A stretch of 64,000 bases of DNA from a virus. A program made the position numbers and the translations under genes. Of this stretch, positions 28,604-63,773 are shown one piece after another. The notes under the pieces were generated by a model. That model was not told where the DNA came from. It made no database searches and was given only the letters and a program-made list of their open reading frames with translations. Every line of letters starts with the position of its first letter. Position 1 is the stretch's first letter. The stretch lies in the UHGV virus genome UHGV-0066004; one strand, written 5' to 3'.

Positions 28604-28624
28604 AAAAAGGCTCCCGAAGGAGCC
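28604..28624 (-). terminator. intrinsic terminator with UUCG tetraloop
   Basis: Minus strand GGCTCC-UUCG-GGAGCC followed by U-run. Confidence 0.6.
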
Positions 28625-28636
28625 TGTATCTTAACC

Positions 28637-29101
28637 TTAACCGAGGACTTTAGCAAGGATATTCGCAGCCATCGAAGAAGCTTTTGCAGCAGCAACTACG
28701 CCAGCTTTGACAGTGCTATCCTTAATAGCAGATACCGTTGCAGCATCAGTAAAGAGATAAGTGATTGTTTTAGAACCACTTGTAAAGGAAAGCATAAGAG
28801 TAGTTTCCAGATTGAAAGAGCGATACGGAGCACCTTCTTTAACGATACCTTCAGCACCTAACTCTGAAGCCTTGCCCATATCATAGATAGTCATCAGGTT
28901 TTCTTTGTGTGCTGTGGTTGAGCCAGAACCTTTTACGTGTTTCTTAACATTCAAAAGAGCACGATACTCTCGGATGTTACCGTCTGCTTTTACGTTGACA
29001 GCACGGAAAATTTTACCCTCAAAGTTGCTCTTGATAATGTTACGAACTACTTCAGATTTGTTTGCCGTAACGTCCAGTGCTACCGTAATGATATTGTTCA
29101 T
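28637..29101 (-). CDS. hypothetical protein
   Basis: 154-aa ORF. Confidence 0.5.
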   Translation of the reverse strand: MNNIITVALDVTANKSEVVRNIIKSNFEGKIFRAVNVKADGNIREYRALLNVKKHVKGSGSTTAHKENLMTIYDMGKASELGAEGIVKEGAPYRSFNLETTLMLSFTSGSKTITYLFTDAATVSAIKDSTVKAGVVAAAKASSMAANILAKVLG

Positions 29102-29111
29102 AAGTTTTCTC

Positions 29112-29807
29112 TCAATGTTTAACTAACATGGTTTTGATGTGTGGAAGTATTCTGTTCACCTTCTGCACATTCTTCTCTGTGTCTTCTATAAAACATACTA
29201 TATTAAAGTAAGGCAGAATACAAGACTGAATCATCCTCACTTTCAAACTTTCTGCACTTATAGAGTTAGTCCCAAAACCACGCATAAAAAGCATGTAGTC
29301 ATGCTCTGTGTTATGCCTTAAAAACATCTCAGTAGGTATTCTCTGAGATTCACCTCTCGCTGTCAAGAGTCCAATGGCAGCATGATTAGCAATTGCATCA
29401 ATAATACTAAAGACATACGTTGGTTTTGCTCTTACAGAGTCAAGAAGATTAGTGTACTGTGAGAATGACCCATCAGTCAATTCCGTTGAGCAATCTTCGT
29501 GATTAAAATTTGTAAGAACACCATCAATATCTGCTAAGATGAGGTTACCTTTTTCTACAAGGTCTTTATTGACTATGACTAAGCTATCACGACTTACACC
29601 TATAGTTTGTCCAGTCTCTTTATCTACAACATTCACAATTGGCTCTGATGTGTGGAACTCTTCGAGTGAACATACAACTTCTCTTGCAGTGTCTTCAAAA
29701 TCCCTACACTGTTCTGGAGTCCATACACAGGAATCAAGACCTAACTCATGAGGATGTAAGTCGTAAGCATGACACAGTACTTCATCAGACTTTTTTAATT
29801 TTTTCAT
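29112..29807 (-). CDS. HAD-superfamily hydrolase (putative nucleotidase or phosphatase)
   Basis: LILADIDGVLTNF matches HAD motif I (DxDGV). Confidence 0.45.
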   Translation of the reverse strand: MKKLKKSDEVLCHAYDLHPHELGLDSCVWTPEQCRDFEDTAREVVCSLEEFHTSEPIVNVVDKETGQTIGVSRDSLVIVNKDLVEKGNLILADIDGVLTNFNHEDCSTELTDGSFSQYTNLLDSVRAKPTYVFSIIDAIANHAAIGLLTARGESQRIPTEMFLRHNTEHDYMLFMRGFGTNSISAESLKVRMIQSCILPYFNIVCFIEDTEKNVQKVNRILPHIKTMLVKH

Positions 29808-30333
29808 GGTTTACCTTAGAAATGTTTATTGCAAATTCACATTGAGCAATGACTTTCATGTTGTTATAGACATCTTGAGAATATTTCTTAGCTTTAGGGA
29901 TTTTGTACGAATACCCAGCATTATATGATGCTAAAACTTTTTGTAAAGTCTTCTTTGACTTTGGCTGACCATGCACCTTTGTCCAAAACTCAAGCTCTTT
30001 GTGAGTTTCCTTCGCAGCATAGTCAAAGTCTTTTAAGAGTTTCTTTTTAGCCACATTAGGACTAATTTTGTTACGCTTTACAACAGTCTTCAAGTGATTC
30101 TGGAAGATACCATAATCATGTGTCTTTTTATTCTCTACCTTCAGACCTAACTCTGACTCTTGTAAGGCTATAGCAGCTAGAGTGATACCCCAACCTTTAC
30201 CCATGTTATTCTCACCATACTGGTAAGCTTTTAACATGTTTACTTTTTGGCTAATTGATAGCTCTGGGCAGTCAACTGCATAAGATAAGTGTGCTGTAAA
30301 CATTAAGCACAAACCTAGAATCAATTTCTTCAT
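29785..30333 (-). CDS. secreted lysozyme or lytic transglycosylase-like protein
   Basis: N-terminal signal peptide; AIALQESELG...DYGIFQ resembles SLT-domain catalytic region. Confidence 0.4.
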   Translation of the reverse strand: MKKLILGLCLMFTAHLSYAVDCPELSISQKVNMLKAYQYGENNMGKGWGITLAAIALQESELGLKVENKKTHDYGIFQNHLKTVVKRNKISPNVAKKKLLKDFDYAAKETHKELEFWTKVHGQPKSKKTLQKVLASYNAGYSYKIPKAKKYSQDVYNNMKVIAQCEFAINISKVNHEKIKKV

Positions 30334-30433
30334 TGGTTCTCCTGTTTAGTTTATCGTGACAACAATTATACAGCACTCTGCACAAAATACAAATAAAAAA
30401 GGCCGCCGAAGCAGCCTTTTAAGAAATTACTTA

Positions 30434-31543
30434 TTAGATTTCACGTTTACGTTGGGAGATTAGTTCACCAGCAGTGCCAACGATGACATGCAAAGCTTCA
30501 GTCTTGCCATCCCATTCTTTCAGCACTTTACGTTGATTATCAACGATTGCTGCAACTTCATAACGAGACGAACGCATCTTCATATCGTTGTAATCAGTTG
30601 GAACAGATACAACATCTCGTGGATGGACACGAACCTTCAGGATTGTATCACCTGAGAAGCAACGAACATAATCCCAAGCACCAACGTGAAGACCCTGAGA
30701 GCAAGTCACGTTACGGTTATTATCAACCATCCAACGTGGCATTTCTACAATGTTACCCAAATCATTAGGTACTCTGTAGGTGTGGGAGTCAACCAGCTTG
30801 CCTTCATGAGTAGAGACTTTCTTCCAACCAATGATGTAGCCTTCTTCATCAATTTCAACATCAAGGTGAGATACGAATCCCCAAAGTTGTTCTACAGAGT
30901 CTTTAGATGGGTTTTCCATCAGTTTTTCGAAGAACATCACAAGGCGTTCAAAACCCTTATCTCCAGTCTTCATCATGTGAAGAATACGGTCAACCAGAGT
31001 AGAACGCATCTCAACAGCACCGTAGAATAACTTGTCACCTTTGATGGTGATAGCACCCTGAGTGAAGTTTTCGATAGACTTACGAATGTTCATCAGTTCG
31101 AAAGCTTTCTTATACTCACCGGATACAACAGCCATCACGATTTCTTTGTAGTTCGGATGGGTAGATTCAACGATTTCAGAATCTGCACCGAAAGTCATGA
31201 TAACAGAGTCGCCAGTAATCATGTACTCAATCTGGTTGCCATTCTGCATAGCTTCATGCAGTTTATTTACCGGAGCTTTCTGTACAGGCTCTTTAACAAC
31301 CTTTTCAACTGGTTTGTCAGCTTTCTTTTTAACTGATTTAGCAACTTGCTTCAAAGTCTTCGTAGCTGGTTTAGAAGCTACCTTTTTCTTACCTTTTAAG
31401 GTTGCTTCATGACGCTCTACAGCACGACCAACTGAACGGGTTGAAGTATTGAACTTCTGTGCAATAGCTGTTTTAGTCAGCTTACCTTCTTTAACCAGTT
31501 CGTAAATTTCTGCGTCAATCTGTGCTTTAGTTTTAGTAGTCAT
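30434..31543 (-). CDS. rIIB-like protein (tentative)
   Basis: 369-aa ORF immediately downstream of rIIA-like gene; assignment mostly by synteny. Confidence 0.35.
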   Translation of the reverse strand: MTTKTKAQIDAEIYELVKEGKLTKTAIAQKFNTSTRSVGRAVERHEATLKGKKKVASKPATKTLKQVAKSVKKKADKPVEKVVKEPVQKAPVNKLHEAMQNGNQIEYMITGDSVIMTFGADSEIVESTHPNYKEIVMAVVSGEYKKAFELMNIRKSIENFTQGAITIKGDKLFYGAVEMRSTLVDRILHMMKTGDKGFERLVMFFEKLMENPSKDSVEQLWGFVSHLDVEIDEEGYIIGWKKVSTHEGKLVDSHTYRVPNDLGNIVEMPRWMVDNNRNVTCSQGLHVGAWDYVRCFSGDTILKVRVHPRDVVSVPTDYNDMKMRSSRYEVAAIVDNQRKVLKEWDGKTEALHVIVGTAGELISQRKREI

Positions 31544-31622
31544 CTTATTACTCTCTCTTGTTAGTTAATAAATCATTTTGTAAGGCTATTCTAAGGGGCT
31601 TCGAAGCCCCTTGTCAAACACT

Positions 31623-62450: not shown

Positions 62451-62531
62451 GTAGTTAGTCTCAACTACATTAAAATGAGACTTACCTTTTTAAAAGGTCT
62501 TTAAAAGGTCTTTAAACAGGGTCTTTTAATG

Positions 62532-62610
62532 AGGTGTGGTAAGGTAAGGTTAGGCGAGGTTGGGTGCGGCAAGATTTGGTCAGGTTTGGTATGGTGAGGG
62601 TGGATGGTAG
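62532..62610. repeat. GGTNN pentanucleotide array (about 14 units) plus GGTAG...CTACC hairpin
   Basis: GGTAA GGTAA GGTTA GGCGA GGTTG GGTGC ... GGTGA. Confidence 0.75.
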
Positions 62611-62692
62611 TAGCCACGTTAAAAATCTACCAAGTTTCTAAAGAGTCTTCTGTTGAGGGTTCTTTACAAACAACTTAACAATCAACTAAAGT

Positions 62693-63295
62693 GTGGAGCT
62701 AAATGCTATGAAACTGTTAAATGTCAAAATCACTGGTACTCGTCCTTTCTTGAGCCATAACGATACGCTGTCAGACCCATTAAACCCTCTGACAAAATAT
62801 CACAAGTCTCTGTCCAGTAAACGTAAAAAGACTGACGAAGACTATGCGCTCTTAGCAGAAAGTCAACTGGTAACTTCTTGTTACTACGATGAGCAACTTG
62901 GTTTTGTTATGAACGGTGAGATGATTGAGGCTTGTATCAAGTCTGGTGCAAAACTCAACAAACTTGGTAAGGTAATTGACCGAGCCATTATGCTGACAGA
63001 TGTAGTCTTCCCAATGACTATCAAGAACTGTCCAGCAAACCCACAAGAACTCGCTAAGAATCCAGACTTTATCTATGCTAAGTCTGTTAAGATTGGTACA
63101 GCACGAGTTATGAGCTACCGTCCAATCTTCCGTGACTGGTCTGTAGAGTTTGGTTTGATGTTCGATGAAGAGCAAATCACCCGAGAGGAACTTCTGATGG
63201 TTCTGGAAAATGCTGGTAACCTTTGTGGTGTAGGTGATTGGCGTCCACGCTTTGGTCGTTTTTCTGTAGAAGTTATTTCAGAAGGTAACGTTTAA
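62693..63295 (+). CDS. hypothetical protein
   Basis: 200-aa ORF inside the direct-repeat-flanked cassette. Confidence 0.5.
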
Positions 63296-63297
63296 TT

Positions 63298-63738
63298 ATG
63301 AATACAAAAGCATTAGCAGCAAAGTTCAGTTACGGTGACACTGTATCACATTCTGAGATGGACACCTTCTTAGGTATTGTGAAGCCAACTTATCAAGGTG
63401 ACATTGTTAAGTACGAAGATGAAATGAAGGCTTACGCACTGACACGTTTAAATCGACTTGAGAAGTTTATTGAGAAGCTTCTTAAAGAAGAGAAGATTTA
63501 TCTGGTTGCTTCAATGGGTGTTGGTTATCGTGTGGTTGAACCTAAGCATCAAGCAACTATTGCAAAACGAAAAATGTCTGGTAAAATTGGTCGTGCTTTA
63601 AAGCAAGCCACTCAAGCGATTGAGAATGTGAACACTATGGCACTTAGCCATCAAGAACGCTCACGACTAATTGAACAGCAAAACCATTTAGCTGCTATGA
63701 AAGCTAACATTAACAAGCAACGTAGAAAACCTTTCTAA
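63298..63738 (+). CDS. hypothetical protein
   Basis: 146-aa ORF, 2 nt after previous stop. Confidence 0.5.
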   Translation: MNTKALAAKFSYGDTVSHSEMDTFLGIVKPTYQGDIVKYEDEMKAYALTRLNRLEKFIEKLLKEEKIYLVASMGVGYRVVEPKHQATIAKRKMSGKIGRALKQATQAIENVNTMALSHQERSRLIEQQNHLAAMKANINKQRRKPF

Positions 63739-63748
63739 GTTAACTAGG

Positions 63749-63773
63749 TAGCCTCTTCGGAGGCTCCTTTTTA
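63749..63773 (+). terminator. intrinsic terminator with UUCG tetraloop
   Basis: AGCCTC-TTCG-GAGGCT followed by CCTTTTT. Confidence 0.7.

Follow-up and report, generated by a model that had tools for sequence, protein, structure and literature searches.

The 64,000-nucleotide (nt) stretch of viral DNA analysed here, UHGV-0066004 (hereafter the window), carries plus-strand genes at 10.7-18.5 kb and 56.5-64 kb and minus-strand genes at ~20.5-56.3 kb, and between these genes recurs a family of short hairpins capped by a UUCG or UACG loop and followed by a U-run. With 98% identity to Escherichia phage garuso over positions 28000-36500, and 93-96% to ~170 other Felix O1-like phages, the window reads as a segment of a Felixounavirus genome (Ounavirinae), i.e. 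of a Felix O1-type phage. Hairpins were located by a consensus scan and by a separate hairpin scan; of the 17 terminator-like sites listed in the window, seven form the UUCG/UACG family and are, in our judgement, very probably canonical Rho-independent terminators read by the host RNA polymerase. An Rfam search of the window at gathering thresholds returned only 24 transfer RNAs, whose genes form a cluster at 3346-8489 on the minus strand, and matched none of the hairpins to a described RNA family. The seven, each named below by the coordinate of its 5' end, are:

13756..13773, plus strand: A-GGCUCC-UUCG-GGAGCC-U, then UUUUAUUUU; 3' of the endolysin gene (13282-13746); orthologue of Felix O1 terminator t35
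28608..28625, minus strand: A-GGCUCC-UUCG-GGAGCC-U, then UUUUCAUUUU, with the U-run at 28607-28603; orthologue of Felix O1 t5
30397..30420, minus strand: AAAA-GGCUGC-UUCG-GCGGCC-UUUU with a U-run (U6); 3' of rIIB; orthologue of Felix O1 t2
34530..34553, minus strand: AAGA-GGCUCC-UACG-GGAGCC-UUUU, then UAAUUU; 3' of the NAMPT gene, next ATG 18 nt on
42857..42884, minus strand: (UGAAA)GGGUCUC-UUCG-GAGACC, then UUUUUAG; in the interval from a small membrane-protein gene to nrdD; orthologue of t116 in Felix O1
46967..46986, minus strand: GGAGCCUC-UUCG-GAGGCUCU, then UUUCAU; upstream of nrdA; orthologue of Felix O1 t111
63750..63765, plus strand: AGCCUC-UUCG-GAGGCU, CC, U5; 11 nt past the stop codon of open reading frame (ORF) 63298-63738

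These hairpins consist of 6-12 pairs, 4-5 of them G-C, closed by a loop of 4 nt that reads C(UUCG)G in six members and C(UACG)G in one, i.e. a UNCG tetraloop with a C-G closing pair. Folding energies range from -12.9 kcal/mol (13756; z-score -3.9) to -16.6 kcal/mol (34553), and z-scores from -2.3 at 63750, the weakest of the family, to -5.3 at 42884 (-15.8 kcal/mol); 4-6 U residues lie within the 8 nt 3' of each stem on the gene strand. The 18-mer at 13756-13773 on the plus strand exactly matches the hairpin at 28625 on the minus strand, and the 42884 hairpin, which has a U-rich tail on the plus strand too, may act in both directions. UUCG-capped GC-rich stems occur 6 times in the window, against a mean of 0.03 and a maximum of 1 in 300 dinucleotide-preserving shuffles. 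All 17 terminator-like sites lie 2-55 nt past a stop codon (usually 8-17), on the same strand as that gene, and at 11 of the 13 sites with a downstream gene the hairpin ends 17-25 nt from the next ATG, against the Shine-Dalgarno sequence. The order is stereotyped (stop codon, ~10 nt, hairpin, U5, Shine-Dalgarno, ATG), as at 28625, where the stop codon lies 11 nt before the hairpin and the i-spanin ATG 23 nt after it.

The family has its structure and its loop in common, not one sequence. A GGCUCC stem is common to three members only (13756, 28625 and 34553) and a GCCUC stem to two (46986 and 63750). When the seven paralogues and three variants were aligned with the loop as anchor, 98.6% of the cells were paired and both sides had changed in 5 of the 7 pairs; the covariation score was 0.67 versus 0.30 in shuffles, none of 500 shuffles scored as high, and shifting the register abolished pairing. 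A preliminary description of this DNA had listed five of these hairpins as near-identical GC stems closed by a UUCG loop (or CGAA on the other strand). All five are present, and four of them have to be read as the reverse complement because they lie in the minus-strand gene block. The UUCG loop holds for four, that of 34553 being UACG; near identity holds within the GGCUCC and GCCUC groups, the other stems differing by compensatory pair changes; and the hairpins at 13756-13773 (plus strand) and 30397-30420 (minus strand) have to be added to the list.

Conservation was followed in IMG/VR loci centred on rIIB (30 loci), nrdA (33 loci) and ORF 63298-63738 (18 loci). The hairpins are kept at orthologous positions across Felix-like and Moogle-like phages: the one at 28625 (t5) is unchanged in 26 related loci despite diverging flanks, that at 42884 is unchanged in 29 of 29 loci with divergent flanks, those at 34553 and 63750 are found in 16 and 18 loci, respectively, and the hairpin after the endolysin gene is also present in Shigella phage Sf14. 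In Moogle-like relatives (77-83% amino-acid identity in rIIB) the flanks have diverged, and GGCUCC-UUCG-GGAGCC and GGGUCUC-UUCG-GAGACC are identical. Variation among loci is informative: the t5 loop alternates between UUCG and UACG, one t2 stem pair is G.U in some loci and A-U in others, and the loop of some relatives reads UCCG, UUUG or, inverted, CGUA. At the NAMPT terminator (orthologues of 34530-34553) the loop is UACG in most loci and CGUA in three (L005, L019 and L020), i.e. the reverse complement within a perfect palindrome, which a loop inversion or a hairpin-mediated template switch would be expected to leave. At the nrdA terminator, Felix-like loci have a GAGCCUC/GAGGCUC stem and Moogle-like loci a GGGUCUC/GAGACCC stem; in five of the latter (L168-L170, L174 and L177) the hairpin at this position, GGGGUCUC-UUCG-GAGACCC, has the stem of their own nrdD terminator, which suggests either two compensatory pair changes or copying from the nrdD-type hairpin within the genome. 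A distant relative, L034 (57% identity in rIIB), has another hairpin, GGCUGCCC-UUCA-CAGGGUGGCC-U5, at the same place after rIIB.

Among the 17 terminators, four stand directly behind a sigma-70-like promoter, here a site that scores 9 or more of 12 matches and leaves 0-3 nt between its -10 box and the hairpin, the start being taken 7 nt past the -10 box:

13724..13752, plus strand: promoter TTGACA-N17-TATCTT, -10 box ending 3 nt before the 13756 hairpin; predicted start ~13759, in the 5' arm
15785..15813, plus strand: promoter before the terminator at 15814, GGGAGCUAUC-GAGA-GGUAGUUCCC (composite 15785-15837, non-UUCG); predicted start ~15820, in the 5' arm
34554..34581, minus strand: promoter TTGACA-N16-TATGAT (11/12), -10 box adjoining the 34553 hairpin; predicted start ~34547, inside the stem
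38140..38112, minus strand: promoter before the terminator at 38111, AAGGGGAC-UGUAAAG-GUUCCCUU (composite 38089-38140, non-UUCG); predicted start ~38105, in the 5' arm

The expected number is 0.135 and none of 5000 random trials reached four, the null being random genome positions rather than other intergenic regions. The -10 box of the 34553 promoter reads TATGAT or TATTAT in relatives, and the same composites, among them those at 13756 and 15814, also occur in Felix O1 and in Sf14, where their spacers differ in sequence. GenBank record KR014248 (phage AYO145A) annotates a promoter beside the endolysin terminator and an overlapping promoter with the t2 orthologue. In the window, the order 3' of t2 (the 30420 hairpin) is reversed, a promoter with a perfect TATAAT (30369..30364) lying 28 nt downstream.

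Intrinsic termination is an established mechanism, which we apply here to the phage hairpins. With the polymerase on the U-run, a GC-rich stem of 6-8 base pairs would form in the RNA exit channel, capped by a tetraloop of unusual stability, C(UUCG)G or C(UACG)G, and the weak rU:dA hybrid would then let the transcript go; the hairpin at the 3' end would also shield the messenger RNA from exonucleases. We infer termination from the stem, the loop, the U-tract, the sense orientation past stop codons, the conservation of position, the compensatory changes and the match to what has been predicted in print for Felix O1 and AYO145A; every sequence-level test was passed, and in silico the terminator interpretation of the preliminary description is well supported. 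As most of the hairpins lie 17-25 nt from the next start codon, they would be leaky attenuators, or would be paired with overlapping restart promoters; at 13756 and 34553, where the predicted start falls inside the stem, new transcripts would lack the complete hairpin and so escape the terminator.

Several points weigh on the other side. Some U-tracts are imperfect (UUUU then C at 46986, CC ahead of U5 at 63750), and the U-run at 42884 is able to pair with upstream A residues. The next ATG is so close that efficient termination would silence the downstream genes unless there were read-through or overlapping promoters, and the real termination efficiency may be low. Compaction of the intergenic regions, which are very short, could in part underlie the register of promoters and hairpins in place of selection. 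Orthologous stems for the most part stay unchanged, within-site covariation coming from few events (the Moogle-like change at 46986 and the one-sided G.U/A-U in t2), and the searched literature yielded no transcript 3'-end, start-site or transcriptome data for Felixounavirus.

The preliminary description had also regarded hairpins of the form GGGGCU...AGCCCC, without a U-tract, as relatives of the terminators. They exist, including in the type B cassettes; two of the positions given were 7 and 3 nt away from the true ones (31595-31610 and 36367-36382), and a further hairpin lies at 20181-20196. Their surroundings mark them as a separate class of promoter-embedded stem-loops, not terminator variants:

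20181..20196, minus strand: hairpin GGGGCU-AAAU-AGCCCC, then AGAUA; just upstream of the terminator at 20168..20151
22628..22663, minus strand: type B cassette with TTTACA and hairpin GGGGCUUA-N13-UAAGCCCC, the 3' arm after the -10 box TAAAGT
23422..23457, minus strand: type B cassette, architecture as at 22628
24494..24529, minus strand: type B cassette variant with -10 box TATCTT
24874..24909, minus strand: type B cassette
25346..25381, minus strand: type B cassette
31588..31617, minus strand: promoter TTGACA-N18-TAGAAT (11/12) in the rIIA/rIIB interval; predicted start ~31581
36367..36382, minus strand: hairpin GGGGCU-UGAA-AGCCCC with AUUUUGAGAG; prs stop codon 9 nt before, NAMPT ATG 20 nt after, TTTATA ahead

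Short-loop GGGGCU...AGCCCC palindromes number 3 in the window versus 0.01 expected, and the type B cassettes contain five longer ones. Seven of the eight hairpins stand 0-1 nt behind a -35-like hexamer (TTGACA, TTTACA or TTTATA) on the gene strand, the exception being 20196, whose tail AGAUA is that of the type B cassettes, and six of those seven lie within or across a sigma-70-like promoter. The palindrome GGGGCUUCGAAGCCCC (31610..31595) exactly occupies the spacer of the rIIA-rIIB promoter; all 27 aligning loci, Moogle-like ones with unrelated flanks included, retain the two boxes and the two arms, with a variable loop and a spacer of 17-18 nt, and KR014248 annotates the orthologue as a promoter. 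Type B promoters read TTTACA-N17-TAAAGT or TATCTT (9/12 matches), the 5' arm following TTTACA and the 3' arm the -10 box; a garuso type B cassette keeps promoter geometry and hairpin with different inner stem bases and a -10 box TAAGAT. Neither 31610 nor the type B hairpins carry the U-tract of a terminator. The 36382 hairpin has a short U4 run (AUUUUG), a marginal U-tract, and arms conserved with variable loops in 17 loci; it is probably a weak terminator or attenuator, and a promoter was rejected at this site, where the -35-like TTTATA is accompanied by no credible -10 box. Transcripts started at promoters of this class would be free of the hairpin, which only read-through RNA from the upstream gene would carry. 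Given the missing U-tract, the GGGGCU hairpins are probably attenuators or 3'-end stabilisers on read-through RNA, not canonical terminators.

A further kind of cassette on the minus strand, type A, is found at 20501-20521, 21661-21681, 22906-22926, 23771-23791 and 25816-25836, with a variant at 21100-21116. It is laid out as a promoter-like TTGACA-N17-TAAATT, ~10 nt, an identical hairpin GGGGAGGGAAUGACCUUCCCC, ACUAAAUAAA, Shine-Dalgarno and ATG, and its hairpin would stand at the very start of the transcript, in the manner of a 5' stabiliser.

Units in which a sigma-70 promoter is joined to a GGGG...CCCC stem-loop have been described, under the name of promoter-early stem-loops (PeSLs), in the T4-type phages RB49 and phi1 (Arbiol et al. 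2010, PMC2839356), where the stem-loop lies between the -35 box and the -10 box, over either box, or just downstream of the -10, and where a stop codon and a Shine-Dalgarno sequence delimit the units, which serve as attenuators and recombination sites; PeSLs were later extended to other T4-like phages (Comeau et al. 2014, PMC4122927). In the window, promoter boxes spaced by 16-18 nt are present at rIIB and in the type B cassettes and absent at 36382 and 20196, and the stem-loop lies, in arrangements matching those of the PeSLs, between the boxes (rIIB), across the -10 (type B) or just downstream of the -10 (13756, 15814, 34553 and 38111). We tentatively entertain the possibility that these are PeSL-like composites in Felix O1-type phages, with promoter and stem-loop in a fixed register that would terminate and restart transcription within ~60 nt, the units doubling as recombination junctions for cassettes. 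This is the only part of our reading that is mildly novel.

Insertions and deletions among relatives coincide with such units. Compared with the window, garuso has an extra 513-nt gene at the type B cassette 24444-24538, with a cassette on either side, and Felix O1 is without 21687-22867, exactly the segment between two type A cassettes. Among the IMG/VR relatives, L007 has a 1.7-kb insertion at the t5 site between two identical copies of CAGGCUCCUUCGGGAGCCUUUUU, five loci have insertions of 205-346 nt just 3' of the 34553 (NAMPT) terminator, and four have insertions of ~505 nt in the intergenic region of the 36382 hairpin. These breakpoints would fit PeSL-like shuffling. They also speak for a second account, in which the repeated hairpins and cassettes mainly offer brief homology at which co-infecting phages recombine and so gain, lose or exchange gene cassettes, termination being secondary or parallel; the Moogle-like nrdA terminator, with its nrdD stem as if copied over, and the precedent of PeSLs in T4-type phages point the same way. 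We consider this account doubtful: phage insertions are intergenic anyway and nearly every intergenic region here has a hairpin, so that coincidence is expected, an identity of 18-25 nt is very short, and an inserted gene may carry its own generic terminator. Moreover, no recombinant junctions or mini-circles were observed, and neither the U-tracts nor the strict sense orientation would be explained.

It also seems unlikely that the hairpins are RNA-stability or processing elements (barriers to 3'-exonucleases, determinants for RNase III or RNase E) in read-through polycistronic RNA instead of terminators. Such a role would accommodate the 17-25 nt to the next ATG, which leave no room for a promoter and imply substantial read-through, the puzzlement of the Felix O1 authors over transcription past terminators, and the conservation of GGGGCU hairpins that have no U-tract. 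However, the conserved sense-strand U5 directly 3' of every UUCG/UACG stem is a signature of intrinsic termination that pure stability would not need, and the two roles are compatible in that a terminated transcript ends in a protective hairpin.

For the GGGGCU class in particular, the palindromes might instead act in DNA, as sites for dimeric phage or host regulators or as cruciforms, those in spacers controlling promoter use: the arms are invariant across genera while the loops vary, they lie between -35 and -10, and the authors of the PeSL work speculated on a protein recognising GGGG...CCCC. We regard this as very improbable, given that the arms are 4 nt apart at rIIB and 13 nt apart in the type B cassettes, a poor fit to one dimeric binder, that the garuso cassette keeps its hairpin with different inner stem bases, that the terminator family shows compensatory changes and that no candidate regulator was identified. 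Chance recurrence from base composition, in favour of which only the shortness of the motifs speaks, has practically no probability and is ruled out by the shuffles (6 versus 0.03 for the UUCG stems, 3 versus 0.01 for the GGGGCU palindromes), to which the consistent placement after stop codons and the conservation across genera are added.

Returning to the UUCG/UACG hairpins as terminators, the recurrence of nearly the same sequence had been taken as a sign of a shared terminator or RNA-stability module reused across the genome. The exact 21-mer GGCTCCTTCGGGAGCCTTTTT is found in at least 120 IMG/VR stretches; 102 of the viral stretches listed share no alignable DNA with the window, their flanks being unrelated and their GC content 33-63%, and the 21-mer is also found in at least 120 bacterial genome stretches from many phyla. 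Because it is so widespread in unrelated viruses and bacteria, we read the shared sequence as a generic, repeatedly arising optimal design, not as copies from one mobile module. The notion of a reused module is accordingly weak, with unrelated flanks, differing stems and the same 21-mer in more than 100 unrelated viral stretches and many bacterial phyla, and a single duplicated or mobile terminator module is ruled out by the flanks, the covarying stems and this wide distribution.

Other repeats were noted along the window. TGTGCAG lies 3' of the terminators t13 and t2 at a similar distance (30378-30384, minus strand), occurs three times in 160 nt at 26049-26212 (minus strand) and is kept by relatives; over the whole window its 14 matches, versus 10.6 expected, do not amount to an enrichment. 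An identical hairpin with its tail, GACCCCGAAACAGGGGUC UUUACUUGG, is present at 49562-49579 (minus strand) and 59272-59289 (plus strand), inside ORFs 49118-49642 and 59194-59760; for the former ORF, garuso has a counterpart annotated as an HNH homing endonuclease, and the segment 49126-49642 is missing from most relatives. Between the converging plus- and minus-strand gene blocks, ~1.5 kb (18550-20100) is without any ORF of at least 60 amino acids and contains repeated TTAACA-N18 promoter-like sites at 19657-19719; the garuso annotation places two repeat_regions within its counterpart. Arrays of ~13 NNGGT pentamers (aaggt gctgc gaggt ggggt cgggt caggt ...) lie at 63795-63865, at 63940-64000, where the array extends past the window, and at 1995-2330 of the relative L195, in which three arrays precede a TTGACA promoter and a small ORF. 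Each array sits between conserved AAAAGGTCTTTAAGAGGGTCTTTTAA and GGGTAGTTAATCGGAGCTACAT, and the arrays are hypervariable among phages whose upstream protein is 99-100% identical.

As it stands, the terminator finding adds little, these being textbook elements that already appear in the Felix O1 table and as GenBank annotations; it can be of use for annotating transcription units in Felixounavirus genomes (phage therapy, Salmonella typing) and as a source of compact terminator parts. The fixed-register coupling of promoters to hairpins and the coincidence of indel junctions with these units would, if confirmed, matter more, suggesting in what way transcription is insulated and restarted in short intergenic spaces by a phage that has no RNA polymerase of its own, and how accessory genes are swapped. 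C(UUCG)G hairpins are reportedly prevalent in the intercistronic regions of T4 and in E. coli terminators, with which the present hairpins share the UUCG/UACG loop, the C-G closing pair, the short GC stem, the U-run and the location between genes; they differ in belonging to an Ounavirinae lineage and in being known from sequence alone.

The closest comparison is with Felix O1 itself, for which Table 2 of Whichard et al. (2010, Viruses 2:710, PMC3185647), in its entries up to t116, gives as predicted Rho-independent terminators t2 (ggctgcttcggcggcctttttt), t5 and t35 (ggctccttcgggagccttttt), t111 (gagcctcttcggaggctctttt) and t116 (ggtctcttcggagaccttttt), includes the non-UUCG terminators found here too, and does not list 63750 or the NAMPT terminator (34553). 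GenBank record AF320576 for Felix O1 has no regulatory features, and KR014248 annotates rho-independent terminators at the orthologues of t2, t5 and t13 and after the endolysin gene (t35). Sites are orthologous, gene neighbours are the same and sequences are identical or near-identical (ggctccttcgggagcc, ggctgcttcggcggcc, gagcctcttcggaggctc and ggtctcttcggagacc); apart from the terminators being itemised singly in those entries of Table 2, where their common C(UUCG)G design goes unremarked, there is no substantive difference. That such hairpins are predicted intrinsic terminators is thus already known for Felix O1, whose authors wrote that how transcription passes the many terminators was not known to them.

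The comparison with PeSLs is of another kind, and no link between PeSLs and Felix O1-like phages was found in the searched literature. PeSLs were defined in T4-type myoviruses, where promoter and terminator activity and mini-circles were shown experimentally, whereas the window belongs to the genus Felixounavirus in the Ounavirinae and its units are read from their sequence only; in addition, most of the plain UUCG terminators here have no strong promoter. The GGGGCU hairpins and the promoter-abutted terminators nevertheless resemble PeSLs in combining a sigma-70-like promoter with a stem-loop of a G-run and a C-run in an intergenic unit of ~60 nt reaching from stop codon to Shine-Dalgarno, in clustering among small ORFs of unknown function and, perhaps, in having indel breakpoints at the units. 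If true, termination and restart within such units would mean that PeSLs are not confined to T4-type phages, and would answer the question of the Felix O1 authors on how transcription gets past the terminators.

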